DNA from: a virus | IMG/VR virus record: IMGVR_UViG_2582581264_000001 | Coordinates: 1 to 44,209 of that record | Strand: one strand, 5' to 3' | Length of the DNA stretch: 44,209 bases | Shown: positions 730 to 44,209 of the stretch, piece after piece | Numbering within the stretch: the first letter of the stretch is position 1 | Layout: every line of letters begins with the position of its first letter | Position numbers and translations under genes: made by a program | Notes under the pieces: model-generated | Databases searched by the model: none | What the model saw: the letters and a program-made list of their open reading frames with translations, nothing else | Told to the model about the DNA's origin: nothing

Positions 730-747
730 TTGTTTCGTACTAAACAA
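730..747 (+). promoter_or_regulatory. 18-bp conserved motif, copy A (TTGTTTCGTACTAAACAA)
   Basis: One of four near-identical copies (730, 1847, 18302, 32903), all written in the same + orientation. This copy overlaps the -10/+1 region of the minus-strand promoter for 404..721. Internal inverted repeat TTGTTT-N6-AAACAA. Confidence 0.6.
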
Positions 748-789
748 TTACCTCTATTCGAGGTAGCTAGTCAAGCTATCAATGCTATC
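746..789 (-). promoter_or_regulatory. sigma70-like promoter with upstream GATAG repeats, driving 404..721
   Basis: Minus strand reads GATAGcattGATAGC-TTGACT-N17-GTAATT. It has the same architecture as the promoters at 1428, 1861, 4424 and 32854. Confidence 0.5.
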
Positions 790-1427: not shown

Positions 1428-1472
1428 TGATACATCGTTTTGAAGTATCTAGTCAAGCTATCTATGATAGCT
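1428..1472 (-). promoter_or_regulatory. promoter plus perfect 17-bp palindromic operator for 830..1381
   Basis: AGCTATC-TAT-GATAGCT (1456-1472) abuts TTGACT (minus strand, 1456-1451), followed by N17 and GTATCA (1433-1428). Confidence 0.55.
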
Positions 1473-1846: not shown

Positions 1847-1864
1847 TTGTTTCGTACCATACAA
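1847..1864 (+). promoter_or_regulatory. 18-bp conserved motif, copy B (TTGTTTCGTACCATACAA)
   Basis: Identical to copy D (32903) and overlaps the -10 region of the minus-strand promoter for 1488..1811. Confidence 0.6.
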
Positions 1865-1911
1865 ATACCCGCTATCGTGGCTATGTCAACTATCCATAAT
1901 ATCCATGATAG
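1861..1911 (-). promoter_or_regulatory. promoter with two overlapping operator palindromes for 1488..1811
   Basis: Minus strand reads CTATC-ATG-GATAT and ATATT-ATG-GATAG, followed directly by TTGACA (1889-1884) and a weak -10 (ATTTGT/GTATTT). Confidence 0.5.
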
Positions 1912-2231
1912 CTAATAATTCCGATAAATCCCAACTTCACAACCGCGAGATTGAGAGCATTCGCAAGCCCGCGGTTAAAACCAGGCGCCCCAAACCAGGC
2001 CCTCCGCTCCCCTGGCATAAGTCCACCGCCGCACCGCGACCCCGCCCCCCACGCCAGAGAGAAAAGCCCTCACACGCTATAGGAACAGAAACACCCTCCC
2101 CGTAGGTTGCCCGCTGATGTTGACGCAAACGGCAAATATGGAGGCGCCGCCATGATGTTTTGTTAACTGTAACCCGCCCCGGTTACAGTTTTGGTTACTA
2201 AAAAACGCTGTGTTTTCAGCGTTGTAACCAA

Positions 2232-2526: not shown

Positions 2527-3096
2527 ATGACCATAAGAGAGACCGTTCATACCGTTGCCCGGCAGACCATGAAACCGCGCCCTGAACCTGCCAAGCGGGT
2601 GCGCGCCACTTCAGAGCGGAAATTGCACAATGTTGACGTTGTGATTGATCGCTGCGGAGCGGAGCGAATTGATAGCGGCGTTATGGCGCTGCACCGCAAC
2701 GGCTCTCTAACCGATTCAGACCTGCATGCAGCAGAACGGTTTTACGCTGATTATGCGCTTGCGGTGCATGGTGCGCGCGACAGCGAGAAAACCGGAGGGG
2801 GTGGAAGCCCTGACAGCATGGGGGTGGCCGTCATCCACGCATCCGCCGCACTGACAGACGCAATCGAGGCGGTGGGAAGTTACGGGAAGGCTATCCTTGT
2901 TGCGTTTGTCGTGGACGGCCTATCCCTAGCTAAGATCGCGCAATCAAGGGGCGAAAATAGGCAAGTCCTTACCGGAATTGTGATTTCCACAATTAAGCGG
3001 CTGAGCGATCATTACTATGCGGTTGATAACCGTCCGCGTTTTCCAATGAAGCGAGCGCGGAGCGTTCAGAAGCAGTTAGCATCCCTAAAAGCGTAA
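2527..3096 (+). CDS. putative DNA-binding protein with a C-terminal sigma70-region-4/LuxR-like HTH (candidate iteron-binding or regulatory protein)
   Basis: ATG 2527 (MTIRETV...), with GGAG 10 nt upstream. The C-terminal LSLAKIAQSRGENRQVLTGIVISTIKRL looks like an HTH. The gene lies immediately downstream of the iteron array. Confidence 0.5.
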   Translation: MTIRETVHTVARQTMKPRPEPAKRVRATSERKLHNVDVVIDRCGAERIDSGVMALHRNGSLTDSDLHAAERFYADYALAVHGARDSEKTGGGGSPDSMGVAVIHASAALTDAIEAVGSYGKAILVAFVVDGLSLAKIAQSRGENRQVLTGIVISTIKRLSDHYYAVDNRPRFPMKRARSVQKQLASLKA

Positions 3097-3313
3097 CGAT
3101 TGCTTGCATTTCACCGGAAACCGCATGAACACCCGTCGCCATGCGAGAGATGGAGAGCAGCCGGGCTTTGAAGGTCCGGCGGTCCCCAAGCGCGCCAAGC
3201 GCGCGAGCAAGCGCCGATTGAGCGCCTTCACCAAATAACTTTTGCAGCTTCACGTAAAACTCTGCCGCGCTATCAGAACGCGCGGTTTTGCTGCGGTTTG
3301 GATGGTTTGCCAT
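2993..3313 (-). CDS. hypothetical protein (106 aa), possible small DNA-binding protein
   Basis: ORF track entry with a strong GGAGAGG RBS. Its 3' end overlaps the 3' end of 2527..3096 by 104 nt (convergent). Confidence 0.55.
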   Translation of the reverse strand: MANHPNRSKTARSDSAAEFYVKLQKLFGEGAQSALARALGALGDRRTFKARLLSISRMATGVHAVSGEMQAIVTLLGMLTASERSALASLENADGYQPHSNDRSAA

Positions 3314-3625: not shown

Positions 3626-3817
3626 TCATTGTGCTACCTCATTATGAGGCATGCCGTCAAGCGGCAATTCAACCGGCAGAACGTCAGCGACGCGGGCGCA
3701 CGTCATGATTCCGCCGTCAAGCGATATGCCGAATACAGCCGGTTCAGATTGCACCGCGTAGTGACGCGCAACACGAAACACAATGGACGGGTGACGGGGG
3801 AGGGAAAAAGCTTTCAT
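3626..3817 (-). CDS. hypothetical protein (63 aa; start uncertain, a GTG at 3844 is also possible)
   Basis: ORF track 3626..3844. No convincing RBS for either start. An alternative + strand ORF (3617..3823) exists. The minus strand was chosen because the surrounding operon is leftward. Confidence 0.35.
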   Translation of the reverse strand: MKAFSLPRHPSIVFRVARHYAVQSEPAVFGISLDGGIMTCARVADVLPVELPLDGMPHNEVAQ

Positions 3818-3856
3818 GGTTAGCGGTTCTTTCAGTGATAGCACAGATAGAGTTTT

Positions 3857-4159
3857 TTAAAGGGAAGTCTCAAGGCCGGTCATAGAGCGGAATGTGTCGC
3901 GCAACGCTTCTGCATAAATGCCGGTTTCAATACCGCGCGGCTGAAGGTCTAGGTTGCGCAAGCGCCAAGCCTCAAGCGTGTATGTGTCGCTAGGCTGCAA
4001 CGTCACCCGAAAGCGGTTAATGCCACGCACCGCTAATCGAGCGGGAAGGGTAAAGCTTAGGCTATCGCTGCCTGAGACCAGATTCTTAGCGCCGGTCATG
4101 GTCAAAAATTTATGGCCGCCAAGCTGGCTAAGGATTGTGAGGGCAACTTGCTTTGACAT
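3857..4159 (-). CDS. hypothetical protein (100 aa)
   Basis: ATG 4159 (MSKQVALTILSQLGGHKFLTMTGAKN...) with GGAG 8 nt upstream. The sequence has a conserved-family feel, but I cannot name the family. Confidence 0.6.
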   Translation of the reverse strand: MSKQVALTILSQLGGHKFLTMTGAKNLVSGSDSLSFTLPARLAVRGINRFRVTLQPSDTYTLEAWRLRNLDLQPRGIETGIYAEALRDTFRSMTGLETSL

Positions 4160-4172
4160 TTCGTGATCTCCG

Positions 4173-4394
4173 TTAAAGGCCAAGGGCCGCAAGCAATTCA
4201 TCATCCGTGATCTCAGGGAGGGGACCGTCTTCAGGAAGATTTAAGAATTTCTGTTCATCTGCAATTTCACGTTCGTATTGGCGAACCTTCACGGAGCGCA
4301 TTGTGATTTCCTGGGGGGTTTTCGCCGCAGCTAGGCGGCATAGCTCATGGGAAAGGCCAACCTGCAAGGCTTCAAGGTGGGTTGTGTCGGTCAT
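4173..4394 (-). CDS. hypothetical acidic protein (73 aa), first gene of the leftward operon
   Basis: ORF track entry with a GGAG RBS and the promoter/operator immediately upstream. Confidence 0.6.
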   Translation of the reverse strand: MTDTTHLEALQVGLSHELCRLAAAKTPQEITMRSVKVRQYEREIADEQKFLNLPEDGPLPEITDDELLAALGL

Positions 4395-4423: not shown

Positions 4424-4475
4424 CATTACGTCGTTTTGAGGTGGTGTGTCAACTATCATGGATAGCAATGATATC
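4424..4475 (-). promoter_or_regulatory. promoter plus operator palindrome for the leftward operon 4394->2993
   Basis: Minus strand reads GATATC-attg-CTATC-CAT-GATAG fused to TTGACA (4452-4447), then N17 and GTAATG (4429-4424). Confidence 0.55.
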
Positions 4476-4508
4476 AAAAAAATAACGCGGCATTGCGGAG
4501 GGTGGCAC

Positions 4509-4568
4509 GGCCAGGGATTGCCCGGCCTTCCTGGCATTGCACGGGGCCAGCAAAAGGCCAGGGATTGC
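4509..4568 (+). repeat. two 13-bp direct repeats GGCCAGGGATTGC (4509-4521, 4556-4568)
   Basis: Exact duplicates 47 bp apart in non-coding DNA. CCTGGC (4530-4535) can pair with GCCAGG in either copy. Confidence 0.85.
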
Positions 4569-4601
4569 AGGGGTTGCGGCGCGAGAGTGGAGCGAAGCGA
4601 A

Positions 4602-4635
4602 ACGGAGCGGCGCAACAGCTTCCGTGCGTTTTTTT
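4602..4635 (+). terminator. candidate intrinsic terminator (+ strand) with no upstream protein gene
   Basis: Stem ACGGAGC / GCT(T)CCGT with one bulge and a 9-nt loop, followed by GCG and a T7 run (4629-4635). Confidence 0.45.
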
Positions 4636-4683
4636 GATCGCACAATACATATATGCGCGCGCGAAAATTTGGCCGCGCAAGCC

Positions 4684-4700
4684 GGGGAGGGGAGGGAGGG
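4684..4700 (+). other. G-quadruplex-forming motif GGGGAGGGGAGGGAGGG
   Basis: Four G-tracts of at least 3 G separated by single-nucleotide loops. Confidence 0.7.
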
Positions 4701-4701
4701 C

Positions 4702-4740
4702 CGAAAAATGCGAAAATTCGCAAAAAATCGCAGAAATCCG
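4702..4740. repeat. four tandem ~10-bp A-tract units (candidate intrinsic bend)
   Basis: CGAAAAATG / CGAAAATTCG / CAAAAAATCG / CAGAAATCCG. The A-tracts start at 4704, 4713, 4722 and 4734, roughly in helical phase. Confidence 0.7.
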
Positions 4741-4751
4741 CCATTTCTAAG

Positions 4752-4809
4752 CTATCAAAGATAATTCGGCTATCAGTTGTAGCCACGCTATCACGAATAT
4801 CATGGATAG
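4752..4809. promoter_or_regulatory. cluster of CTATC/GATAG operator-type sites
   Basis: CTATC-AAA-GATAA (4752-4764), CTATC (4770), CTATC (4788) and ATATC-ATG-GATAG (4797-4809). Confidence 0.5.
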
Positions 4810-18205: not shown

Positions 18206-18319
18206 TTACCAACTCACATAAATCACGCCAAGCAAAAACGCCCACAAGATCGCAACAAAGGCCAGCTTGGCCCCTAATAAAAACCAGCCAAAAACGCTGC
18301 GTTGTTTCGTACCAAACAA
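18206..18319 (-). CDS. candidate antisense small hydrophobic peptide (37 aa, TTG start)
   Basis: Hand translation: MFGTKQRSVFGWFLLGAKLAFVAILWAFLLGVIYVSW. GGAG lies 7 nt upstream of the TTG. The ORF exactly fills the 127-nt gap in the tail operon. No promoter identified. Confidence 0.25.
   Translation of the reverse strand: MFGTKQRSVFGWFLLGAKLAFVAILWAFLLGVIYVSW
18302..18319 (+). promoter_or_regulatory. 18-bp conserved motif, copy C (TTGTTTCGTACCAAACAA)
   Basis: The only copy without an adjacent TTGACA promoter. Lies 12 nt upstream of the tape measure start. Contains a perfect TTGTTT-N6-AAACAA inverted repeat. Confidence 0.6.
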
Positions 18320-31717: not shown

Positions 31718-32010
31718 TGCTTGCCGCCTTCCTGGCAGCTTTGCAGGTAATCTTGCAAGACCTGCCCGAGTTCGCCGCAATCTGGCCAACCCTGGAAAAG
31801 ACCATCTCAACGGGGGCTGAGCCGACCCCGGCCGACCTTGCCAAAATTTGGGCCGCCGCCGCCGCTGTGCATGAGCGCGTTCAGTCTGGCGGCGCTTCCG
31901 CCGACCCCGCCGCCATTGCTTCAGCAGCCGTCACAGACGCGGCGAGCGCGGCTTCCGGCACTCTAGCGGCCCCGCAGGAAGCCCAAACGCCCGCGACTCC
32001 CGTAGGGTAG
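31717..32010 (+). CDS. hypothetical protein (97 aa)
   Basis: TGATG overlap with the previous gene. Ala-rich. Confidence 0.45.
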   Translation: MLAAFLAALQVILQDLPEFAAIWPTLEKTISTGAEPTPADLAKIWAAAAAVHERVQSGGASADPAAIASAAVTDAASAASGTLAAPQEAQTPATPVG

Positions 32011-32043
32011 TCAAGTCTAAAATATTACTATTAGGAATAAAAA

Positions 32044-32078
32044 AGGCCGTCCCCACCCTGGACGGCCTTTCTCTTTTT
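32044..32078. terminator. bidirectional intrinsic terminator
   Basis: 9-bp stem AGGCCGTCC/GGACGGCCT with a 7-nt loop, flanked by AATAAAAA upstream and TTCTCTTTTT downstream. Confidence 0.8.
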
Positions 32079-32132
32079 GAGGTATGCGCGAATGACCGCC
32101 GTTTGGCGGCGATTCGGAGAGTGACATTGAGC

Positions 32133-32163
32133 TAGAAAAATCGAAGGCCGCCCGAAGGCGGCC
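32133..32163 (-). terminator. minus-strand intrinsic terminator with no adjacent minus-strand gene
   Basis: Stem GGCCGCC/GGCGGCC (32146-32163) with loop CGAA. On the minus strand it is followed by TTCGATTTTTCT. Confidence 0.6.
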
Positions 32164-32298
32164 CATGAAAGAGATTTCATCCTAACTTGCCGGGAAGGAT
32201 GACCTCTCTTTGCACATTCCGGGACCATACGCAACACCTTTCGGTGCGCGGATTTGTGCGCCTTGGGCTTCGGGCGCCTCCGATAATGGGGGCAGAAG

Positions 32299-32835
32299 AT
32301 GAAGCGCGAAAAGATTTTCGGCTTGCCGACCGGCAGGCCACTAGACCGGAACGCAAAGGCCCGGATTATGGCCTATGCAGCGGCATGGTCCGCACGCCAA
32401 CGCCAGCCAGGACAACACACCGGCCCATTGACGCGGGCTTATATGGACGTTTTGCGCGCCCTCCTTTGGGGCTTCCACAACGCTAAAACCGGCGCCTGCT
32501 TTCCCGGCTACGACGCTATTGCAAAGCATGCCCGGTGCCACCGCGACACAGTGCGCAAGGCAATTCGCATGCTTGAATTGTCGGGGCTGTTAACCTGGGT
32601 GCATCGCCTCCGCCGCGTTCCTGGCGCCGTGCTGCGGACAAGCAACGGTTACAGCTTCCGTGACCCCTCCCCCGCGCCGCAACCCCGCGAGAATCCTACT
32701 AAGGCGGAAAATTCGCCCGGAACCCAAAACCAAGATTCTTCTAATATAAAGATCGTGGTTTTAGACCCGGCAAACCGGCTTGACGCAGCCCTTATTAGGC
32801 TCGGGAAAAGCGCCGGAGCGTTGTCACCGGCATAA
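32299..32835 (+). CDS. winged-helix DNA-binding protein (plasmid/ICE-type; replication-initiator-like or regulator)
   Basis: GACFPGYDAIAKHARCHRDTVRKAIRMLELSGLLTW is a typical wHTH segment seen in proteins encoded on mobile elements. Confidence 0.5.
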   Translation: MKREKIFGLPTGRPLDRNAKARIMAYAAAWSARQRQPGQHTGPLTRAYMDVLRALLWGFHNAKTGACFPGYDAIAKHARCHRDTVRKAIRMLELSGLLTWVHRLRRVPGAVLRTSNGYSFRDPSPAPQPRENPTKAENSPGTQNQDSSNIKIVVLDPANRLDAALIRLGKSAGALSPA

Positions 32836-32853
32836 CCTCCCCGCTATTACAAG

Positions 32854-32904
32854 CTATCAGTGCTATCATCGATAGTTGACATATCTTAGCTATCATGTTT
32901 AATT
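32854..32904 (+). promoter_or_regulatory. best-defined early-type promoter: operators + TTGACA-N17-TTAATT
   Basis: CTATC (32854), then CTATC-ATC-GATAG (32863-32875) fused to TTGACA (32876-32881), a 17-nt spacer, and TTAATT (32899-32904). Confidence 0.65.
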
Positions 32905-32920
32905 GTTTCGTACCATACAA
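32903..32920 (+). promoter_or_regulatory. 18-bp conserved motif, copy D (TTGTTTCGTACCATACAA)
   Basis: Starts within the -10 hexamer and covers the predicted +1 of the promoter. Lies 10 nt upstream of ATG 32931. Confidence 0.6.
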
Positions 32921-32930
32921 AACAGAGCAG

Positions 32931-33653
32931 ATGACGATGACAGACAACCCTACCCGACAAGTTTATGTAGGTTTTTCAGAGGCTTATGAGCATTTTAACC
33001 AGGTGCTTTTTGAGGGTCGTTTGCCCGGTTGCATTATCACGATGCAGCGCCACAAGGGTGCGCTTGGGTATTTTGCGGGCGATAGGTTTGGAGAGATTGC
33101 GGGCGACGGCAAGACGGATGAAATTGCATTAAATCCGGTGCATTTTAAGGGGCGCACGGCAGAAGAAACGCTCTCCACGCTAGTTCATGAGATGACCCAC
33201 CTTGAGCAGCACCACTTTGGAAGCCCAAGCCGGGGCGGATACCACAACGCAGAATGGGCTAAGCTGATGAAGCGTGTGGGGCTGCAACCAACTGATACGG
33301 GCCGCGCTGGCGGCAAAGAAACCGGCCCATCTATGACGCACCTCATTGTTGAAGGCGGCCCGTTTGAGTCTGCTTGCCGCGCCCTTCTCGGGAAGGGCTT
33401 TGAAATCCGTTACAGCGACAGGTGGGGCGACGTTGATAATGATGGCTCTCGCTCCCGCGCCCCGTCACGGCCAGCCGGAAACGGTGACGACGAAGGCCAG
33501 GGAGAAGGGGAAGCCCCTGCGCCGCGCAAGAAAACCGCCAATAAAACGAAATTTACTTGCCCGGACTGCGGCGCAAACGCATGGGGCAAGCCTTCTCTCA
33601 ATCTCCTTTGCGGTGATTGCAGCGTGCGGTTTGTGTCTGAAGATGGCGAATAA
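32931..33653 (+). CDS. SprT-like zinc metalloprotease with a C-terminal zinc ribbon
   Basis: HEMTH (HExxH) motif in LSTLVHEMTHLEQHHFG, and C-terminal CPDCG...CGDC. Start at ATG 32931, downstream of the predicted +1. Confidence 0.75.
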   Translation: MTMTDNPTRQVYVGFSEAYEHFNQVLFEGRLPGCIITMQRHKGALGYFAGDRFGEIAGDGKTDEIALNPVHFKGRTAEETLSTLVHEMTHLEQHHFGSPSRGGYHNAEWAKLMKRVGLQPTDTGRAGGKETGPSMTHLIVEGGPFESACRALLGKGFEIRYSDRWGDVDNDGSRSRAPSRPAGNGDDEGQGEGEAPAPRKKTANKTKFTCPDCGANAWGKPSLNLLCGDCSVRFVSEDGE

Positions 33654-33675
33654 AAAAGGGGGCATAAGCCCCCTT
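33652..33675. terminator. hairpin between convergent genes (GGGGGC-ataa-GCCCCC)
   Basis: 6-bp GC stem. The A6 run upstream provides the T-run for the minus-strand par operon. The + strand tail is weak. Confidence 0.55.
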
Positions 33676-33678
33676 CCC

Positions 33679-34017
33679 TCACAAAACCCGGCTTTTAGCC
33701 GTAGGTTGCAAGTCAAACTCCGGCACGTCATAACCGGCCTTCTTGGCTAGAGTGGCTATAAACTGCCTCATGCCAACGTCCCTGGACGCATCCAAAAGTA
33801 GCGAGCAAAATTCACGGGAACAGCGAAAGTTGACTTGCTCAAGCTTTTCACGCTGCGGCTTGGGAGGGCGTCCCCTGCCGCGTTGCTGCTCAACCGGCTC
33901 CGCTGGCTCGGCAACTGCTTGGGCTGGTTTGGGGGTTGTCGCAGGTAAATCCGCCGTTGCTTTAGAAATCTGGCTCACAAGCTCCGCCCCGGAGATTTTC
34001 TTTGCCTTCAACGCCAT
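33679..34017 (-). CDS. small partition partner protein (candidate centromere-binding, ribbon-helix-helix-like)
   Basis: 112 aa, translationally coupled (TAATG) to parA. Has a basic middle region (RGRGRPPKPQREK) followed by QVNFRCSREFCSLLLDASRDVG. Confidence 0.5.
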   Translation of the reverse strand: MALKAKKISGAELVSQISKATADLPATTPKPAQAVAEPAEPVEQQRGRGRPPKPQREKLEQVNFRCSREFCSLLLDASRDVGMRQFIATLAKKAGYDVPEFDLQPTAKSRVL

Positions 34018-34676
34018 TATGCAGCACTCCCAACACGGGCCGCAGGAATGGCCCCGATTTCGGTTAATTCGCCAATAAGCCGGTCAGCCTCAACCCCCAA
34101 CCGCCCACTAACAGGCAGGTTCCCGGTAAAGCTGGCCTTACGGAACGCGGATAGATGAGGCAGCGCGTAGCGCATGACGGGCAACCCTTCAGCCTTCAGA
34201 GCGTCAAGAGTCGCAGATTCAACAAGGCCGCCGGTGCGCCATTGCGTGCCGATTACCCTATAAGGAAGGGCGCGCCGCGCCGCTTTCCCAAGAGACTCAA
34301 TTTTGCGCGCTGTGCGGATAGCTTCGCGGGTGCTGCTTCTGTCTGGCATGCACGGCACAAGGATAAAGTCAGCGACGCTAATTGCGCTGGCGGCGGTTAG
34401 GTTGGCAAAGCCCGCCGTGTCAATCACAACTATATCACCGGCCTCTGCTTCCGCCTGGGCCGCGTCAATCACCTCAACCTCCCGGCACTCGGCAAGACAG
34501 CGAAACGGCGCGCCCTCGTAAACATTGGCATGCCAGTCGGAAAGCGTGGCATTTGCGTCAGCGTCTATCACGGTGACGGCATAACCTAGTTGCGCCAAGT
34601 TGGCCGACAGGCATTGCGCTAGAGTAGATTTCCCGGCGCCACCTTTTGAGGTGGCAATCGTTAGGATGGTGCCCAT
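34017..34676 (-). CDS. parA: ParA-family partition ATPase
   Basis: Deviant Walker A TSKGGAGKST, plus VIDADAN and VVIDTAG motifs. 219 aa. Confidence 0.9.
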   Translation of the reverse strand: MGTILTIATSKGGAGKSTLAQCLSANLAQLGYAVTVIDADANATLSDWHANVYEGAPFRCLAECREVEVIDAAQAEAEAGDIVVIDTAGFANLTAASAISVADFILVPCMPDRSSTREAIRTARKIESLGKAARRALPYRVIGTQWRTGGLVESATLDALKAEGLPVMRYALPHLSAFRKASFTGNLPVSGRLGVEADRLIGELTEIGAIPAARVGSAA

Positions 34677-34679
34677 AAT

Positions 34680-34722
34680 AAAACCCCCTTATGGCGGCAA
34701 CGCGCCGCATGTCGGGGGTTTT
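34680..34722 (-). promoter_or_regulatory. leader hairpin/terminator whose 3' arm contains the parA Shine-Dalgarno
   Basis: Minus strand reads AAAACCCCC-N25-GGGGGTTTT-att-ATG. The AAGGGGG of the 3' arm is the only SD-like sequence before parA. Confidence 0.55.
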
Positions 34723-34765
34723 ATCATATCTCGTCTATCAGAGATAGCGTTATATCTATGCTATC
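34723..34765 (-). promoter_or_regulatory. candidate par promoter/operator (or parS) region
   Basis: -10-like TATGAT (minus strand, 34728-34723), CTATC-AGA-GATAG (34735-34747), ATATC (34752) and CTATC (34761). Confidence 0.45.
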
Positions 34766-34771
34766 CTTGAA

Positions 34772-35320
34772 TTATTCGGGGGCGGCCTCATCCGTAACCC
34801 CCGCCGCCTCCACAAGCGCCGAAGCGCCCGCCGGGGCTGTCCCGTTGATCTTGTGCCAATGCTTAATCACCAGGGGGTCACGCTTATGCGATTCCACGGC
34901 GCCACGGTCCATCTCAGCCGCCCGCGTCCGCGCCTCATCGTGTGTAATCGGCTTGCCTGCCTTTCTGCATGCTTCCACCATCGCGCCTGCCACCGCCTGC
35001 CGCCACTGTGTCAGCTTTAACTCTGTTTTCTTCGGGGCGGGCACCTCCCCCGCACCAAGCTTAGCCATGGCGTCTGCCATATCGCCCGCGCGCGACAGAT
35101 AAGACCATAGCCCCAGCGTAGCTAGGTAATCCATCGACGCCTTGGGCAGTCCGGCGGTTGAGAACGAAAGAACGTCACCGCCGGGAATTGTCACGCGGAC
35201 TGTTCCCGCTCCGCCGTCCACAATGCCGCGACGGCGCTGGGCGCGCGGCTCCGGCGGCTCCCTATAAAATCGCCTGCCCTCATGCTGGGGCGCCGGAGGG
35301 GGTGCGGTTTCGTCACTCAT
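34772..35320 (-). CDS. hypothetical protein (182 aa)
   Basis: ORF track entry. Its start codon overlaps the stop codon of the upstream erf-like gene (ATAATG). Confidence 0.6.
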   Translation of the reverse strand: MSDETAPPPAPQHEGRRFYREPPEPRAQRRRGIVDGGAGTVRVTIPGGDVLSFSTAGLPKASMDYLATLGLWSYLSRAGDMADAMAKLGAGEVPAPKKTELKLTQWRQAVAGAMVEACRKAGKPITHDEARTRAAEMDRGAVESHKRDPLVIKHWHKINGTAPAGASALVEAAGVTDEAAPE

Positions 35321-36087
35321 TATTTACCGTCCTTCTGTTCAGAATCCTTGCAAGCCGCGTCAATTTCAGCGTTGATCTTGTCAACAACAACGCCGTGACC
35401 GGCCTCACGCAGAGCCTTGAAAATCGCTTCATTGCCCTTCTGGGCAGCGCGCAGCGTGGGCAGCTTGCCGTCCTTGACGGCCCATGATGTCAGCTTGCCC
35501 CACCACTCAATGAGGGCCTGCGCCCCTTCGGCTGCGAAGATTTCACCATTTGGCCGCAGCGCTGAAAATAGCGGCAGTTTTTCCTTTGGCTTCGGCTTTT
35601 CAGTCTCTTGGCGCTTCTGGTTGCCGCGCGATTGATTGCGGGCTGGCTGGCGCTGCGCGGTCTCCCCATCGTCATCATCTTCATCTGCCGCAAGACGTAA
35701 TATGCCGCTGTAGCTATAGCGGCGCGCGTAAGTAAGCTCAGAGCCGAAAGGTTGCGGGCCTGCATTCGCCTTGAACAACGGATATTCAGATGTAATCCAT
35801 TGCCCGGATGAGTGGCGCAGGGTGGTGACAAGATCAATGGAATTTCCATCACGCCTGATGACTTGCGTGACCGCAAGCTCATTAGCAGCCAACGCCTCGC
35901 GTGTGGCATCTATGGCGCTGGCGAGCGAAGCATAACGGCTCTTGAAATGAGGGTTTTCCCGGTCCTTCTCAGGATTAGGAAACGCGCCTTGGGCCTTTGC
36001 CAGCGCCGCGTTGATCTCGTCGGTTTTTCCCGATTCAAGCCAGCGCATAGCGGGGTTCTGGTATTGCGCGTCCTCGCTCACTTGCAC
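35320..36087 (-). CDS. ERF-family single-strand annealing recombinase
   Basis: INAALAKAQGAFPNPEKDRENPHFKSRYASLASAIDA...TLRHSSGQW...GSELTYARRYSYSGILRLAADEDDDDG matches the ERF pattern. Start is GTG 36087 or the GTG at 36081 that is coupled to the upstream TGA. Confidence 0.8.
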   Translation of the reverse strand: MQVSEDAQYQNPAMRWLESGKTDEINAALAKAQGAFPNPEKDRENPHFKSRYASLASAIDATREALAANELAVTQVIRRDGNSIDLVTTLRHSSGQWITSEYPLFKANAGPQPFGSELTYARRYSYSGILRLAADEDDDDGETAQRQPARNQSRGNQKRQETEKPKPKEKLPLFSALRPNGEIFAAEGAQALIEWWGKLTSWAVKDGKLPTLRAAQKGNEAIFKALREAGHGVVVDKINAEIDAACKDSEQKDGK

Positions 36088-36263
36088 CCCCCGGTGAAAC
36101 CCTTGGTGAAGTGGTAAAGCTTATCACCGCTCTTGTTTGCTACCACACGCCGGTTGGGCGCACCGGCGTAAAAACGGCGGCGCCCGCGCCGCGCTGCATA
36201 CATGGAGACCCAAGCGGCGGCGGCGCGCTCGTGATTGTGTGCTTTTTGACGGGAGTTAAGCAT
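36078..36263 (-). CDS. small basic hypothetical protein (61 aa)
   Basis: ORF track entry with a purine-rich RBS. Confidence 0.4.
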   Translation of the reverse strand: MLNSRQKAHNHERAAAAWVSMYAARRGRRRFYAGAPNRRVVANKSGDKLYHFTKGFTGGCK

Positions 36264-36280
36264 AGCTCTCTTTCTTTCGA

Positions 36281-36823
36281 TTAATGGCGGACGGTTGCAA
36301 CGGGTTCGCCGTTGCTCAGAGTGGCGCCAGGGACAACCTCACCAGCCTTCAGAGCCTCCGCTATGTCTTTTTTCTTCGGAGTGCGTGTGGTTTCGGTCTT
36401 TATAAACTTCTCAGGTAGAAGCGTAGGGTCTGTAATCTTCGCAGACCGGCGCCCTGGCGTGATGGTCAGTGTAAATTCCACGTCCGGCAGCTTCTTCAGG
36501 CCAAGTGCCTGCATTGTGGCAACAACCGCCCCTTTGATTTTGTCAGCCCTGGCAAGCATTTTCATGCGGCGCGAGGCTAGTGTATCCTGGCGATGCTCTA
36601 TGCCGTCCGCAATGCTTTTCGCTTCCAGAGAGGCCCGCATTGCTGTGCGCAGCATTTCCATGGCCTCCCCCCCTTCCCCGTCAAGCATATCAAAAAGAAG
36701 CGCCTCATCTTCGGCAATCGTTGGGTCCATCTCCAAAAGATCAGAACGCAATCTATGAAGGGTTGCCATTGCTTCAGATAGTTGAAGGCGCGAGTATGCC
36801 GGGGTAGCCTCAGTTTTTTTCAT
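36281..36823 (-). CDS. Gp157-like protein
   Basis: Coiled-coil N-terminus and the C-terminal FTLTITPGRRSAKITDPTLLPEKFIK...KKKDIAEALKAGEVVPGATL pattern typical of the siphovirus Gp157 family. Confidence 0.6.
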   Translation of the reverse strand: MKKTEATPAYSRLQLSEAMATLHRLRSDLLEMDPTIAEDEALLFDMLDGEGGEAMEMLRTAMRASLEAKSIADGIEHRQDTLASRRMKMLARADKIKGAVVATMQALGLKKLPDVEFTLTITPGRRSAKITDPTLLPEKFIKTETTRTPKKKDIAEALKAGEVVPGATLSNGEPVATVRH

Positions 36824-36836
36824 TCACCCGCCCCTA

Positions 36837-37181
36837 CTAAAATGGGCGCAACTGCTGCGCATGATAAATCACTTGCAAGCCGGGGCGCGGTATTGTGCTG
36901 CCTACGGCTCCAACCAAGAGACCATCCCCCCGAGCTATTCCATACCGAAATTTCCATTCGGAGACGTTTTCAACCTCAGTTAGAAGTCCTGCGGGAACAC
37001 CAAGAAGCATGTTCCATTCTTGAGGGGATTTTTTGAAGTCAAAAACAGAAGCTTCAACCCCGGCAACACGATCATTGCGGGCCGCAGCGTAATGGAGGGC
37101 TAGGGCTGAAACGGCAACATGCCGTCGCCGCTCCATTTTGAAAGTTACGCATTCAATCAGGGGATTATCAAACAACCGCAT
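36837..37181 (-). CDS. hypothetical protein (114 aa), first gene of the leftward recombination/partition operon
   Basis: ORF track entry. The start is uncertain (a TTGACA-like hexamer overlaps the ATG). Confidence 0.45.
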   Translation of the reverse strand: MRLFDNPLIECVTFKMERRRHVAVSALALHYAAARNDRVAGVEASVFDFKKSPQEWNMLLGVPAGLLTEVENVSEWKFRYGIARGDGLLVGAVGSTIPRPGLQVIYHAQQLRPF

Positions 37182-37414
37182 GTCAACCGCCTATCACTAG
37201 ATTAAGCGTGCCTATTACATGCTGAATGCTGTTCCTATAGATGCACGGCGCGTCTTGAAATTTATTTTTTTGATACAGCGCGCGCCGGGCTATTCCGGGC
37301 AACAACCCCAGGTGATAAAAGTTATCTGAACAATGGTTAAGATAGTGGGTTACAAAATGAAGGTCACAGGAAAAAGAAAGTTACTTCAAGGTTTTTCCGA
37401 TTGGAGCATCTGCA

Positions 37415-37798
37415 CTAGCCGCGTTCGGTGTTGGGACTGCGGCGCGCCCTGCGCGGAATTTTTAGAGACTGCCCAGGCTCCAATTCACCAAGGCGCGAAA
37501 CCATTTCACGACTACAACGAGAAGATACAAGACCGCGATAAATGTAATCTAAAGTCACGCCAAACTTCGCACAAAACTCAATCATGCTCATAGGGTCAGG
37601 CATATTCATACCCAACTCATATTTTGACCACTTTGCTTGAGTTGTTCCGAGAATTTCAGAAAGTTCAAGCTGAGTTATTCCGGCCAATTCCCTTACTTGC
37701 CGGATGCGCTGGCCTATGTCCTTGCGGACTGTTTCCTCTACGGCTGTCCACCGTGCGCGACTACCAGCCTCACTGGTTGTTGTTTTTTCTTTTGTCAT
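37415..37798 (-). CDS. XRE-family (Cro/CI-type) HTH repressor candidate
   Basis: ATG 37798. IGQRIRQVRELAGITQLELSEILGTTQAKWSKYELG is a classic HTH_3 motif. No S24 peptidase domain. Confidence 0.8.
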   Translation of the reverse strand: MTKEKTTTSEAGSRARWTAVEETVRKDIGQRIRQVRELAGITQLELSEILGTTQAKWSKYELGMNMPDPMSMIEFCAKFGVTLDYIYRGLVSSRCSREMVSRLGELEPGQSLKIPRRARRSPNTERG

Positions 37799-37917
37799 AG
37801 GCTCACAGCCCCTTTTCAAGTAATCTAAGTTGGAATACAAAAGTCCCCGCCCTTCGGAGTTTCGGGGGGTGGGGATTGAACGGCCCCCATTGAAAGACCG
37901 TGCGGGGGCGGAGACGG

Positions 37918-38337
37918 ATGGCGCGAGAAGTACGGCGCTTTTCTGAAGAAGAAAACAGCACAATCGTAATCATGCGCGGCAAGCGTTTTGGATGGAACAC
38001 CATTGCGCGGCAGCTAGGGCGGGCCGTAAATCCGACAATCCGGCACGCCGTCCGCGTCCTCGGCCTTCCCGCTGACTTGTCAGCACCCGATAAGCGTCTT
38101 GATCTCACTGAAGAACAGAGCGAGCAAATCCGCAATCTAGCCATGGATGGCTTGGATGTGGCGGGCATAGCAGATGAAACCGGCCTGAATGTCGGAATCA
38201 TAAGAAATTACTGCGGCCTCAATCAAATACGGTTGACGACAAACGACTCTTTACCCGCTGGCGCGAGCGCGACATGGGGGGCGATTATTGCCGGTACTGC
38301 ACTAGCCGGTTGCCCCTTCCCTTCGGCCCAACACTAA
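37918..38337 (+). CDS. DNA-binding protein with two tandem HTH repeats resembling the GcrA N-terminal / Myb-like motif (Cro or antirepressor position)
   Basis: FSEEENSTIVIMRGKRFGWNTIARQLGRAVNPTIRHAVRVLGL and LTEEQSEQIRNLAMDGLDVAGIADETGLNVGIIRNYCGL are internal repeats. The gene is divergent from the XRE gene. Confidence 0.4.
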   Translation: MAREVRRFSEEENSTIVIMRGKRFGWNTIARQLGRAVNPTIRHAVRVLGLPADLSAPDKRLDLTEEQSEQIRNLAMDGLDVAGIADETGLNVGIIRNYCGLNQIRLTTNDSLPAGASATWGAIIAGTALAGCPFPSAQH

Positions 38338-38414
38338 CGCGCTAATCGTAGCTTGCGGGGGTAGCACTTGGCAAGGCGCCAACAATAACATTCTGAGAAA
38401 GGAATATAACGATT

Positions 38415-38873
38415 ATGGCCGGAACAGTAAACAAAGTGATTCTTGTTGGGAATCTCGGGAAAGACCCCGAAGTTCGCAACACGCAAGGCGGGGGCAAAAT
38501 AGTCAACCTTAGCGTTGCAACTTCTGAGTCCTGGAAGGACAAAAACTCAGGCGAACGTAAGACGCTGACGGAGTGGCATCGCGTGGTTGTTTTTAACGAC
38601 AGCCTTGCAGATGTTGCCGAAAAATACCTCGAAAAAGGCGTAAAGATTTATGTTGAGGGCAAGCTTCAAACCCGCAAATGGACCGATCAGAGCGGCCAAG
38701 ATCGCTATTCAACTGAGGTGATTATTCCTCGGTTTGGCGGAGTCCTTACGATTCTGCAAAGCGTCAGCGGAGATGGCCAAAATGACGGACAGAGCCGCGC
38801 TACCGGACGGGCGCAAGGCGGGGGCGGAAGCCATGACAGCAGCGGTTGGAGTGACGATGAAATTCCGTTCTAA
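38415..38873 (+). CDS. ssb: single-stranded DNA-binding protein
   Basis: The OB-fold N-terminus [16 protein letters not shown]...WHRVVVF, a Gly-rich linker and an acidic tip DDEIPF. Confidence 0.95.
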
Positions 38874-42723: not shown

Positions 42724-44209
42724 TTATGGCGGCGATATTGACACAGCCGGAGATATGGAAGGCGGATATAGCGCACCACGCCCTAACCTGCCCTTTCAGG
42801 CTCTCGGTTATGACCGCAGCACGTTCTTTTTTCTGCCAAACAGAGGGGGGCAGGTGTTGGAGTTTTCGGGCCGCGAGCTTGGTTCAGCCGGGGCGTTGCT
42901 TCAGCTTGCCCCGCTTTTCTGGTGGGAATCCGAATGCTCCGGCAAAACCGGCATGGATACAAAGCAAGCGAATGATATGGTTTTGCGCATGTCTTACGCG
43001 GCGGGGCCGTTTGATGCGGGCCGCGTGCGAGGCCGTGGCGTTTGGCTGGAAGATGACGGGCGCCCCGTTGTGCATGCTGGCGATCATTTGGCCGTTGATG
43101 GTCAAATCATCTCGCCTACTGAATGGGAAGGGCAGGGCATCTATGAGCGCGCGCCTAAGCTTGGCGTTTCCTTCAGCGCAGAACCGGCAGAAACCGAGGA
43201 AGCAAAACGCTTCCTTGACCTATGCGCCGCCCTCCCTTGGGAGGATGCAAACGACGATGGCGTGGACACTAGCAGCATGGGCCGCATGCTGGCCGGGTGG
43301 ATAACCGTTTCAGCGTTCTGTGGGGCGATGCCGTGGCGGCCACACGTCTGGATTACTTCGGAGGCTGGCCAGGGTAAAAGCTGGCTGCTTGATAATATCC
43401 TGAAGCCCATGCTTGGCGGGGCTGAGTTGCGGGTGCAATCCAAGACGACAGAAGCCGGGTTACGTGCCGCCCTTGGCCGGGACGCGCGCCCGGTGGTGTT
43501 TGATGAAGCAGAAACGCAGAACCAGCGCGATGCCGACCGCATGCAGCAGGTTCTTGACCTTGCCCGGCAGGCATCAAGCGAGGATGGCGCGGATATTGTG
43601 AAATCAACACAGACCGGACAGGCACGCCGATTCAGAATCAGGTCTATGTTTGCCTTTGCAAGCGTCAACGTGGCGCTCTCGCAAGCGGCTGATGAAAGCC
43701 GGACCATTGTTCTTTCGCTGCGCCCGGCACGGGATAAAGACGCGCGGGCCGCGCATTTCGAGAAGCTGAAAAGCTTGCAGGCCGAAATCGTTACCCCTGG
43801 TTTTGCCGCTCGGCTTCGCGCCCGCACGCTCTCGCTGTTGCCGACTATTCGCGCAAACGCGGAGGTTTTCGCGTCCGCGATTGCGAGGGCAGGGGGGTCA
43901 CGCCGCACAGGCGACACAGTTGGTGTACCTCTCGCCGGTGCATGGTCTCTCCGTTCCCGGCGGACTGCCACCAGGGAGGAAGCGGACGCATTTGTTGCGG
44001 GCACTCCATGGGTACGGGCAGCGGTGGAACGCATCGAGAGCGAGCCGGAATGGAGGCAATGCCTTAACCGGCTGCTCGGGCAGCGCATCCGCCTTCCTGG
44101 CAGGGTTGAAGAAGTCCCCGTTGGCGAGTTGCTGGATATTGTGGGAACCCCCTACAGCACGCCAGAAATGGCCGGAGGGGATGACATGCCGGGTGATGGA
44201 GGGACAGCC
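42716..44209 (+). CDS. SF3 (D5/P4-alpha-like) replicative helicase, 5' part; continues at 1..386
   Basis: Missing from the ORF track because it has no in-window stop. Hand translation MPDYGGDIDTAGD... shows Walker A SEAGQGKSW and Walker B RPVVFDEAET. The combined length with 1..386 is about 594 aa. Confidence 0.8.
   Translation, partial: MPDYGGDIDTAGDMEGGYSAPRPNLPFQALGYDRSTFFFLPNRGGQVLEFSGRELGSAGALLQLAPLFWWESECSGKTGMDTKQANDMVLRMSYAAGPFDAGRVRGRGVWLEDDGRPVVHAGDHLAVDGQIISPTEWEGQGIYERAPKLGVSFSAEPAETEEAKRFLDLCAALPWEDANDDGVDTSSMGRMLAGWITVSAFCGAMPWRPHVWITSEAGQGKSWLLDNILKPMLGGAELRVQSKTTEAGLRAALGRDARPVVFDEAETQNQRDADRMQQVLDLARQASSEDGADIVKSTQTGQARRFRIRSMFAFASVNVALSQAADESRTIVLSLRPARDKDARAAHFEKLKSLQAEIVTPGFAARLRARTLSLLPTIRANAEVFASAIARAGGSRRTGDTVGVPLAGAWSLRSRRTATREEADAFVAGTPWVRAAVERIESEPEWRQCLNRLLGQRIRLPGRVEEVPVGELLDIVGTPYSTPEMAGGDDMPGDGGTA
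44115..44209. repeat. Terminal direct repeat, right copy (identical to 1..95)
   Basis: Letter-for-letter identity with 1..95. Confidence 0.95.

Follow-up and report, generated by a model that had tools for sequence, protein, structure and literature searches.

The 44,209-nucleotide (nt) viral DNA analysed here (IMG/VR record IMGVR_UViG_2582581264_000001, positions 1 to 44,209; hereafter the window) carries short CTATC and GATAG boxes in several of its intergenic regions, some of them fused directly to the -35 hexamer of a predicted promoter. Which protein reads these boxes, and what does it do at the promoters that carry them? A preliminary description of the same DNA had proposed a regulon under a single regulator that binds a CTATC-N3-GATAG palindrome, and had named several candidates for that regulator. 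The evidence reported below points to the 112-amino-acid (aa) partner of a small ParA protein as the probable reader, and to accessory gene cassettes together with the partition (par) operon as its predicted targets.

The GCTATC box and five predicted promoters

We compared the counts of the motif with expectation. The perfect palindrome CTATC-N3-GATAG occurs at four sites in the window (1458, 4453, 32863 and 34735), where 0.01 are expected, and none of 100 shuffles reaches four. The fusion GATAG(C)TTGAC accounts for five of the window's 41 TTGAC[AT] hexamers, and all five fusions are intergenic and face the downstream gene. There are 11 clusters with two or more pentamers in 30 bp, versus an expectation of 0.78 +/- 0.81, and eight of the 11 are intergenic. 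Non-coding DNA, which makes up 8.8% of the window, holds 6.2 pentamers per kb, compared with 1.2 in coding DNA, a five-fold difference.

776/785, 1458/1466, 1872-1907, 3837/3846, 4453/4461, 4752-4805, 32854-32890, 34735-34761: the eight intergenic clusters

The individual sites in the preliminary description are all found where it had placed them, and its claim of a shared operator-promoter architecture, which took in the region upstream of parA, is borne out by these counts. Elsewhere in IMG/VR, the exact pattern CTATCNNNGATAGTTGAC yields 18 single matches on unrelated, mostly low-GC contigs without similarity to the window, and these are chance matches.

The preliminary description treated the palindrome as the binding unit. 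Judged from the arrangement of the repeats, however, the predicted unit is a single 6-bp box, GCTATC, used in direct or inverted orientation, and the 13-bp palindrome is only one mode of pairing. The extended consensus is wGCTATCa. Boxes repeated in direct orientation are spaced 9 or 18 bp apart and those that face head-to-head 8 bp; the period is 8-9 bp, and an adjacent tail-to-tail pair is never seen in the window's arrays. The inter-box spacers are 3-4 bp long (agt, atc, att, cat, atg, tatg, ata and att), and about 80% of their bases are A or T as counted by hand, compared with 43% genome-wide. The site at 1861-1911, which had been described as two overlapping palindromes, actually reads GCTATC-atg-GATAT-tatg-GATAG and comprises a single imperfect palindrome and a direct repeat. 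Such short boxes, direct or head-to-head, recurring every 8-9 bp and parted by AT-rich spacers, suggest a protein that binds as one dimer per box, as ribbon-helix-helix centromere binders do, and not a helix-turn-helix dimer.

This geometry bears on the possibility that a host transcription factor reads CTATC-N3-GATAG and ties the accessory genes to host physiology. A palindrome next to a -35 hexamer is typical of class II activators, but the direct-repeat, triple-box and spacer-box layouts are unfit for a single dimeric factor, and the boxes beside par operons of unrelated replicons, described below, point to an element-borne factor instead. We regard a host factor as very improbable.

Five sigma-70-type promoters, A to E, are predicted directly downstream of box arrays.

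32843..32905, + strand: promoter A boxes, GCTATT 32843-48 (degenerate), GCTATC 32853-58, GCTATC 32862-67, GATAG 32871-75
+ strand: promoter A core, TTGACA 32876-81, spacer box 32889-94, -10 TTAATT/TAATTG 32899-32905
32931-33653: promoter A target, SprT-like metalloprotease gene
4424..4475, - strand: promoter B boxes, GATATC 4475-70 (degenerate), GCTATC 4466-61, GATAG 4457-53
minus strand: promoter B core, TTGACA 4452-47, GTAATG 4429-24
4173-4394: promoter B target, 73-aa gene, plus the genes after it
1862..1912, - strand: promoter C boxes, GCTATC 1912-07, GATAT 1903-1899, GATAG 1894-90, spacer box GATAGC 1876-71
minus strand: promoter C core, TTGACA 1889-84, TATTTG 1867-62
1488-1811: promoter C target, Cys-rich 107-aa gene
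1428..1472, - strand: promoter D, perfect AGCTATC-ata-GATAGCT (1472-1456) overlapping CTTGACT, TTGACT 1456-51, GTATCA 1433-28
830-1381: promoter D target, LPD29-domain gene
746..789, - strand: promoter E, direct repeat GATAGC-att-GATAGC (789-775), TTGACT 774-69, GTAATT 751-46
404-721: promoter E target, 105-aa gene; a terminator hairpin (824-805) stands just before the promoter

Promoter A, for example, reads AGCTATC-agt-GCTATC-atc-GATAG-TTGACA-N17-TTAATT (32853-32905, +). At all five promoters the box edges fall at -5/-6, at -14/-15 and, if there is a third box, at -23 relative to the T of TTGAC. When the five are aligned, the sole invariant block is GATAG(C)TTGAC, while the orientation of the distal box and the spacers vary. 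Promoters A and C have an additional box within the -35/-10 spacer (32889-32894 and 1871-1876, respectively), and degenerate boxes lengthen the arrays of A and B. The -10 element had been given as (G/T)TAAT(T/G) after N17; hexamers of this form are present, but the element reads better as TAwnnn 18 bp past TTGAC(A/T) (TAATTG, TAATGA, TAATTG and TATCAG), with promoter C having TATTTG at 16 bp. The distance from promoter to start codon is 25-60 nt in each case. A strict E. coli-type promoter scan did not call A-E. Their hexamers agree, however, with the lax consensus of the Acetobacteraceae, for which differential RNA sequencing of Gluconobacter oxydans gives -35 ttGnnn, -10 Tatnnn (in highly expressed genes) and a spacer of 16-23 bp (PMC5756330).

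The genes behind A-E form short cassettes, namely SprT-like (A), LPD29 (D) and three unannotated ones (B, C and E); the genes themselves are short and mostly unannotated, and at least one cassette has its own terminator. SprT-like and LPD29 domains are typical of the 'polyvalent' proteins with which conjugative elements and phages establish themselves or counter defences. The closest relative, L022, has neither the SprT cassette nor its promoter A. The regulon had been said to cover all early, accessory and partition promoters; this proved too broad, with no array at the XRE/HTH (helix-turn-helix) pair, at the SSB-helicase-primase genes, at the start of the ERF/Gp157 operon or at the HTH_36 gene. 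The sharpened reading is that the regulon comprises the accessory cassettes plus par, as far as the placement of boxes can tell, and the label 'early' is a prediction.

Boxes also occur away from any recognisable promoter.

4751..4809, - strand: array without recognisable promoter, GATAGC x3 at 18-bp spacing (4792-87, 4774-69, 4756-51) plus CTATC-cat-GATAT (4809-4797)
34735..34765, - strand: array upstream of parA, GATAGC 34765-60 plus palindrome GCTATC-tct-GATAG 34748-34735; three boxes
3837..3850, - strand: box pair CTATC-tgtg-CTATC; lies where genes 3857-4159 and 3626-3817 leave a gap of 39 bp; no -35 after the pair

The six-box array at 4751-4809 borders a 270-bp non-coding region; of all the arrays, it is the strongest candidate for a centromere proper. 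The array at 34735-34765 lies between the stop codon of gene 34772-35320 and the parA leader, has no TTGAC, and is a candidate autoregulatory operator or centromere. Two side observations concern the DNA next to these arrays. The parA leader contains a strong hairpin (34675-34728, - strand; -31.8 kcal/mol, z = -4.2), whose 3' arm holds the parA ribosome-binding site (RBS) and AUG, with a U-run behind it. This hairpin could act as a terminator for gene 34772-35320 upstream, hold back the translation of parA by sequestration, or do both. The 270 bp of non-coding DNA between the six-box array and promoter B (4480-4750) contains the repeats CGAAAAATCG (4702-4736) and CAGGGATTG/GCAATCCCTGGCC and a terminator-like hairpin (4722-4709), and Rfam has no match there.

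It is important to ask, at this point, whether any regulator is needed at all. The boxes might be passengers of one or two duplicated promoter cassettes, or an upstream element for the host RNA polymerase. By sequence the promoters do fall into two sub-families that share more than boxes: A, C and E have a common 18-bp palindrome just past the -10 hexamer, and B and D have a common spacer, TCAAAACGAyGTA. The latter has two matches in the window (1431-1443 and 4427-4439, - strand; promoters D and B) versus 0.01 expected, which suggests either shared origin or a further recognition element. Against passengers or an upstream element, however, the boxes at 4751-4809 and 3837-3850 have no promoter and those before parA no TTGAC, the boxes stay intact while orientation and spacers vary, and the same box family is found beside par operons of unrelated replicons. 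We consider it highly unlikely that the boxes serve no regulator.

A further possibility is that the boxes are iterons or operators of a replication initiator, either the HTH_36 protein (32299-32835) or the product of 2527-3096. Three direct GATAGC boxes at 18-bp spacing stand beside a non-coding region (4751-4792), and promoter A lies directly downstream of the HTH_36 gene. On the other hand, no CTATC box precedes the HTH_36 gene, conservation between the 18-bp units is limited to the 6-bp box, and a far better origin candidate exists elsewhere. Twelve of the window's 29 GTAACC/GGTTAC boxes lie within 2169-2420, at 9- and 12-bp spacing and adjoining gene 2527-3096, and these twelve flank a 39-bp stretch with 92% A+T (2330-2368). 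The 2169-2420 region is the probable replication origin. Since this separate GTAACC/AT-rich candidate exists, we rejected the CTATC boxes as iterons, and a replication initiator as their reader is very unlikely.

The ParA partner and homologous par loci

We turn to the two genes of the par operon.

34017..34676, - strand: parA, small Walker-type ParA, 219 aa, KGGAGKST motif; its stop overlaps the partner start
33679..34017, - strand: ParA partner, 112 aa; N-terminal MALKAKK..EL peptide, Pro-rich linker, strand 59-67, helices 68-77 and 83-93, AGYxVPxxDL tail

The ParA protein matches VirC1 (2e-15), CbiA (3e-12), NCBIfam ParA_partition (4e-29) and phrog_164 (5e-30). As in type Ib partition systems, it is of the small Walker type without an N-terminal DNA-binding domain, and a small partner gene lies directly downstream, encoding an N-terminal basic peptide, a linker and a folded core. 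We propose that the operon encodes a type Ib-like partition system, with the 112-aa partner as its putative centromere-binding protein.

The partner has no match in Pfam, PHROGs or NCBIfam. An exhaustive HMMER search nevertheless assembled a family of 28 representatives, which have in common an MxFKPKR..EL N-terminal peptide, a Pro-rich linker, a core of the form VQxNFRAS-helix-Gly-x-Arg-helix and the AGYxVPxxDL tail. Modelled by AlphaFold2 with the family alignment, the core (predicted local distance difference test 94-98) is strand-helix-helix with the Gly-x-Arg turn preceding helix 2. This predicted order of elements is that of ribbon-helix-helix proteins, and we infer from the model that the partner may adopt that fold. 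RHH_1, CopG and NikA are matched weakly, by single family members only. Searches with the partner by PDB sequence and profile gave nothing significant, a word-indexed protein search returned the partner itself only, tblastn against plasmids and phages gave nothing, and neither did a profile search of genome contigs with a four-sequence partner alignment.

In order to relate the boxes to this family, we examined nine partner homologues in their genomic context. Seven of the nine lie directly downstream of a VirC1-like ParA gene, one stands alone (L023), and one is beside a decayed parA (L024). The par-adjacent non-coding DNA of the homologous loci is dense in GCTA(G/T)C boxes, at 8-11 bp spacing and in both orientations: there are five boxes just upstream of parA in L029, six upstream of parA in L031, seven downstream of the partner gene in L027 (GCTATCaaacGATAGC included), and six downstream of the partner gene on a Roseomonas mucosa plasmid. 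The stand-alone homologue in L023 has GGATATagtGGATATC ahead of its own TTGACA. When the loci are pooled, GCTA[GT] occurs 33 times in 1,442 bp of par-adjacent non-coding DNA (22.9/kb), compared with 3.7/kb elsewhere in the same loci (Poisson 7e-16). Moreover, an unbiased 5-mer ranking of three loci that lay outside the motif definition places CTAGC, AGCTA, TAGCA and ATAGC on top.

One locus, L026, serves as a negative control. Its ParA is 62% identical and the N-terminal peptide of its partner is similar by eye, but the C-terminal DNA-binding domain is different, and L026 has neither a GCTAK array nor a GATAG-TTGAC fusion. The repeats that it does have near or upstream of parA are others, ACACGAATTAaTAATTCGTGT and TTACGAA x2. 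This contrast implies that the boxes track the DNA-binding domain and not ParA. Together with the par-adjacent arrays, it provides good, indirect evidence that the partner is the box reader, as which the preliminary description had listed it among its candidates. On this evidence we consider it reasonably probable that the 33679-34017 protein reads GCTATC boxes. As an observation in its own right, 7581-7904 of L026 and 33679-34017 of the window amount to a domain swap in a ParA partner, with unrelated C-terminal domains.

The alternative is that another regulator encoded by the element reads the boxes, with par as one more target; the candidates are the 106-aa product of 2993-3313, the 182-aa product of 34772-35320 or a small protein expressed from one of the box-bearing promoters. 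Indeed, several small proteins of the element have no annotation at all. However, when the candidates for DNA binding were examined, boxes were seen in the control region of the par operon alone (the rival candidates have none there, promoter-driven cassettes excepted), the link of the partner family with GCTA(G/T)C arrays would be a coincidence, and L026 has neither this partner's DNA-binding domain nor the boxes. The other observation in favour of another regulator, the near-confinement of boxes to par on a Roseomonas plasmid, is taken up below; taking it into account, we judge such a regulator unlikely. The XRE protein, also among the original candidates, was rejected: its divergent intergenic region with the HTH gene has no box, as had been noted from the outset.

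Proposed mechanism and comparison with known systems

Tentatively, and rating it somewhat short of an even chance, we propose that GCTA(G/T)C is the recognition box of an unannotated family of ParA partners and that the family member in this element has been recruited as a plasmid-state repressor of accessory, possibly establishment or anti-defence, cassettes, through arrays in a fixed 9-bp register to the -35 hexamer; the segregation complex would then also be the silencing complex, at eight sites. Each box would take one partner dimer, and neighbours at the 8-9 bp period would bind cooperatively. Arrays of 2-4 boxes end 0-1 bp from the -35 of the five predicted promoters, so that bound partner would block RNA polymerase and repress the SprT-like, LPD29 and three unannotated cassettes during the plasmid state, while the array ahead of parA would provide autoregulation. 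The same arrays, chiefly the six-box one at 4751-4809, would double as centromeres, at which the N-terminal peptide of the partner would recruit and stimulate ParA.

Whether a bound array represses or activates is a separate question. The proximal box is centred near -39 to -42, which is the position of a class II activator, and activation could be read from that alone; yet the consensus -35 and the spacer boxes in A and C speak against it. Since the spacer boxes in A and C are incompatible with simultaneous occupancy by polymerase, repression is favoured, and with the proximal box 0-1 bp from the -35, the 9-bp stacking and the spacer boxes, a filled array should exclude RNA polymerase. We infer repression with somewhat less confidence than we assign to the identity of the reader; activation is less likely, though less clearly so for promoters B, D and E.

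Several observations weigh against the proposed role of the partner. The closest homologue, L022 (48% identity), has no boxes in the part that is available, from which the region upstream of parA is missing. The homologues mix GCTAG and GCTAT, whereas the window has almost only GCTATC. The five promoters are partly paralogous, so that the counts given above do not represent five independent events and recurrence is inflated. Foldseek comparison of the partner model with PDB and BFVD gave no matches. In hhalign the partner has a probability of 0.9% against ParG, where only the KRVNVNF/KLEQVNF strand aligns, and 0.2% against omega; by this comparison it belongs to neither the omega nor the ParG sequence family. 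The promoter arrays hold only 2-4 boxes, and omega requires at least four contiguous repeats to activate its ParA (PMC9499535). Finally, a complete 172-kb Roseomonas plasmid that encodes a homologue has its arrays essentially at par only. Dispersal is thus no family trait, which could mean that a second reader is at work here; a multi-promoter regulon is atypical of the partner family, as one would expect if another regulator were the reader.

We accordingly rejected dispersal as a general property of the partner family. Among the few replicons sampled, the spread of boxes to accessory promoters looks specific to this element. Away from par, the Roseomonas plasmid (NZ_CP147882.1) has one compact site, GCTAGCTATCATAGC (116608-116622), perhaps a solitary operator for the partner homologue encoded there.

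How does the proposed arrangement compare with partition proteins that are known to regulate transcription? KorB of the IncP plasmid RK2 is both a partition protein and a global repressor, with class I operators immediately upstream of the -35 at several promoters. It is, however, a large helix-turn-helix, CTP-dependent ParB whose target is a 13-bp palindrome and whose action can extend over a distance, whereas here the putative reader is small, accompanies a type Ib-like ParA and would use short multi-box arrays. The Sop system of N15 is reported to influence phage gene expression. In this linear phage-plasmid the centromere sites IR1-4 are dispersed round the genome and not clustered (PMC7205306, citing Ravin and Lane 1999), and the element studied here resembles it as a phage-plasmid with dispersed candidate centromere sites. 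The N15 system differs in being type Ia (SopA/SopB), with a helix-turn-helix protein on single palindromes of the 16-bp class and no fixed-register fusion to the -35.

The closest parallels are found in smaller proteins. Like omega/ParB of the inc18 plasmid pSM19035, the partner studied here is small, accompanies a Walker ParA and has an N-terminal tail for interaction with ParA, the last as predicted from its N-terminal peptide. Omega binds 7-bp repeats tightly as direct or head-to-head pairs (PMC9499535), and in both systems short non-palindromic repeats, direct or head-to-head, occur at the promoters of several operons including par and serve, here putatively, as operator and centromere (PMC9499535, PMC2441792). 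At the sequence level, such sites are present in the window at five promoters and upstream of parA. The partner has no detectable sequence similarity to omega, which uses 7-10 contiguous 7-bp WATCACW heptads per site, whereas a site in the window has 2-6 boxes, each 6 bp long, and spacers of 3-4 bp. The targets differ as well: copy control, par and toxin-antitoxin genes on a Firmicute plasmid in the case of omega, and accessory cassettes on an alphaproteobacterial phage-plasmid in ours.

ParG of TP228, which acts at the parH centromere and the OF operator, recognises 4-bp boxes separated by 4-bp AT-rich spacers in either orientation (PMC3130281). The window likewise has short direct and inverted boxes with AT-rich spacers at a period of about 8 bp, and the two systems would share one dimer per box, as well as arrays upstream of the ATPase gene for autorepression and centromere function, both of which are proposed here (PMC3130281). 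There is again no detectable homology. Moreover, the boxes of ParG are ACTC tetramers, 20 of them in a single contiguous region, and parFG is its sole target of regulation, whereas the arrays described here are dispersed to five other promoters.

The element and what the regulon would mean

The window begins and ends with an identical 95 nt (1-95 = 44115-44209) and thus represents a closed circle of 44,114 bp, whose junction is spanned by a large primase/helicase-like gene. A separate contig of 44,154 bp is the same element in assembly GCA_000964385.1, and the element is present in GCA_025995295.1 too, as its own contig in both. It has a complete structural module of a tailed phage (terminase, SPP1-type portal, scaffold, Baseplate_J and endolysin among the genes), an XRE repressor with a divergent HTH gene, and ERF, Gp157, SSB, helicase and Prim-Pol genes; an integrase domain was not detected among the open reading frames scanned in the window. 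The closed circle, the absence of an integrase domain among those frames and the separate contig in two assemblies argue for a phage-plasmid. ParA finds its best matches on plasmids of Roseomonas, Kozakia and Gluconacetobacter, and the terminase is 58% identical to its counterpart in Komagataeibacter phages. The most economical reading is that the element is probably a phage-plasmid of an acetic-acid bacterium (Acetobacteraceae). No matches were obtained when phages were searched for DNA nearly identical to 32000-38500, when the par operon was compared with plasmids by blastn, or when IMG/VR was scanned with the ParA and SprT proteins, and Rfam found no family over the whole window.

The palindrome shared by promoters A, C and E deserves separate description.

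730-747, 1847-1864, 18302-18319 and 32903-32920 of the window; 8962-8979 of L026: copies of the 18-bp palindrome

This 18-bp quasi-palindrome, TTGTTTCGTACyAwACAA (TTGTTTCGTACnAnACAA), has four copies in the window versus 0.03 expected. At the three promoters it begins at the end of the -10 hexamer and covers the predicted +1, and the fourth copy lies just upstream of the RBS of the large 18333-20284 gene. The copy in L026, a locus without CTATC boxes, is a one-base variant. A scan of genome contigs with the 18-mer gave 64 single matches in unrelated taxa, approximately the chance number. The palindrome is probably the mark either of another regulator, independent of the first, or of a 5'-leader element.

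A further side observation concerns gene 2527-3096 (+ strand), whose product has a sub-threshold match to DUF6456 (E 1.6e-4) and a match to phrog_16492. DUF6456 is the annotation of GafA-type activators of gene-transfer agents (PMC9638019), and the product may be a late-gene activator or an origin-binding protein. A homologue that is 44% identical is found in L026, beside HTH_36 and ParA genes.

With regard to novelty, the principle embodied by omega, ParG and KorB is known; what we propose as new is the unannotated protein family, the phage-plasmid setting and the rigid register between box and promoter. If the proposal is true, it supplies a recognition box and a testable function for an unannotated family of partition proteins, one without an entry in Pfam, NCBIfam or PHROGs, and it extends the omega/KorB principle, whereby the partition protein is a global repressor, to a tailed phage-plasmid of the Alphaproteobacteria. 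Boxes at -5, -14 and -23 beside a consensus -35 make up a compact, modular operator-promoter cassette of possible use for engineering in acetic-acid bacteria, whose native promoters are poorly defined. Finally, if the partner does act as proposed, phage-plasmids could silence their accessory cassettes without a lysogeny switch of the XRE type.

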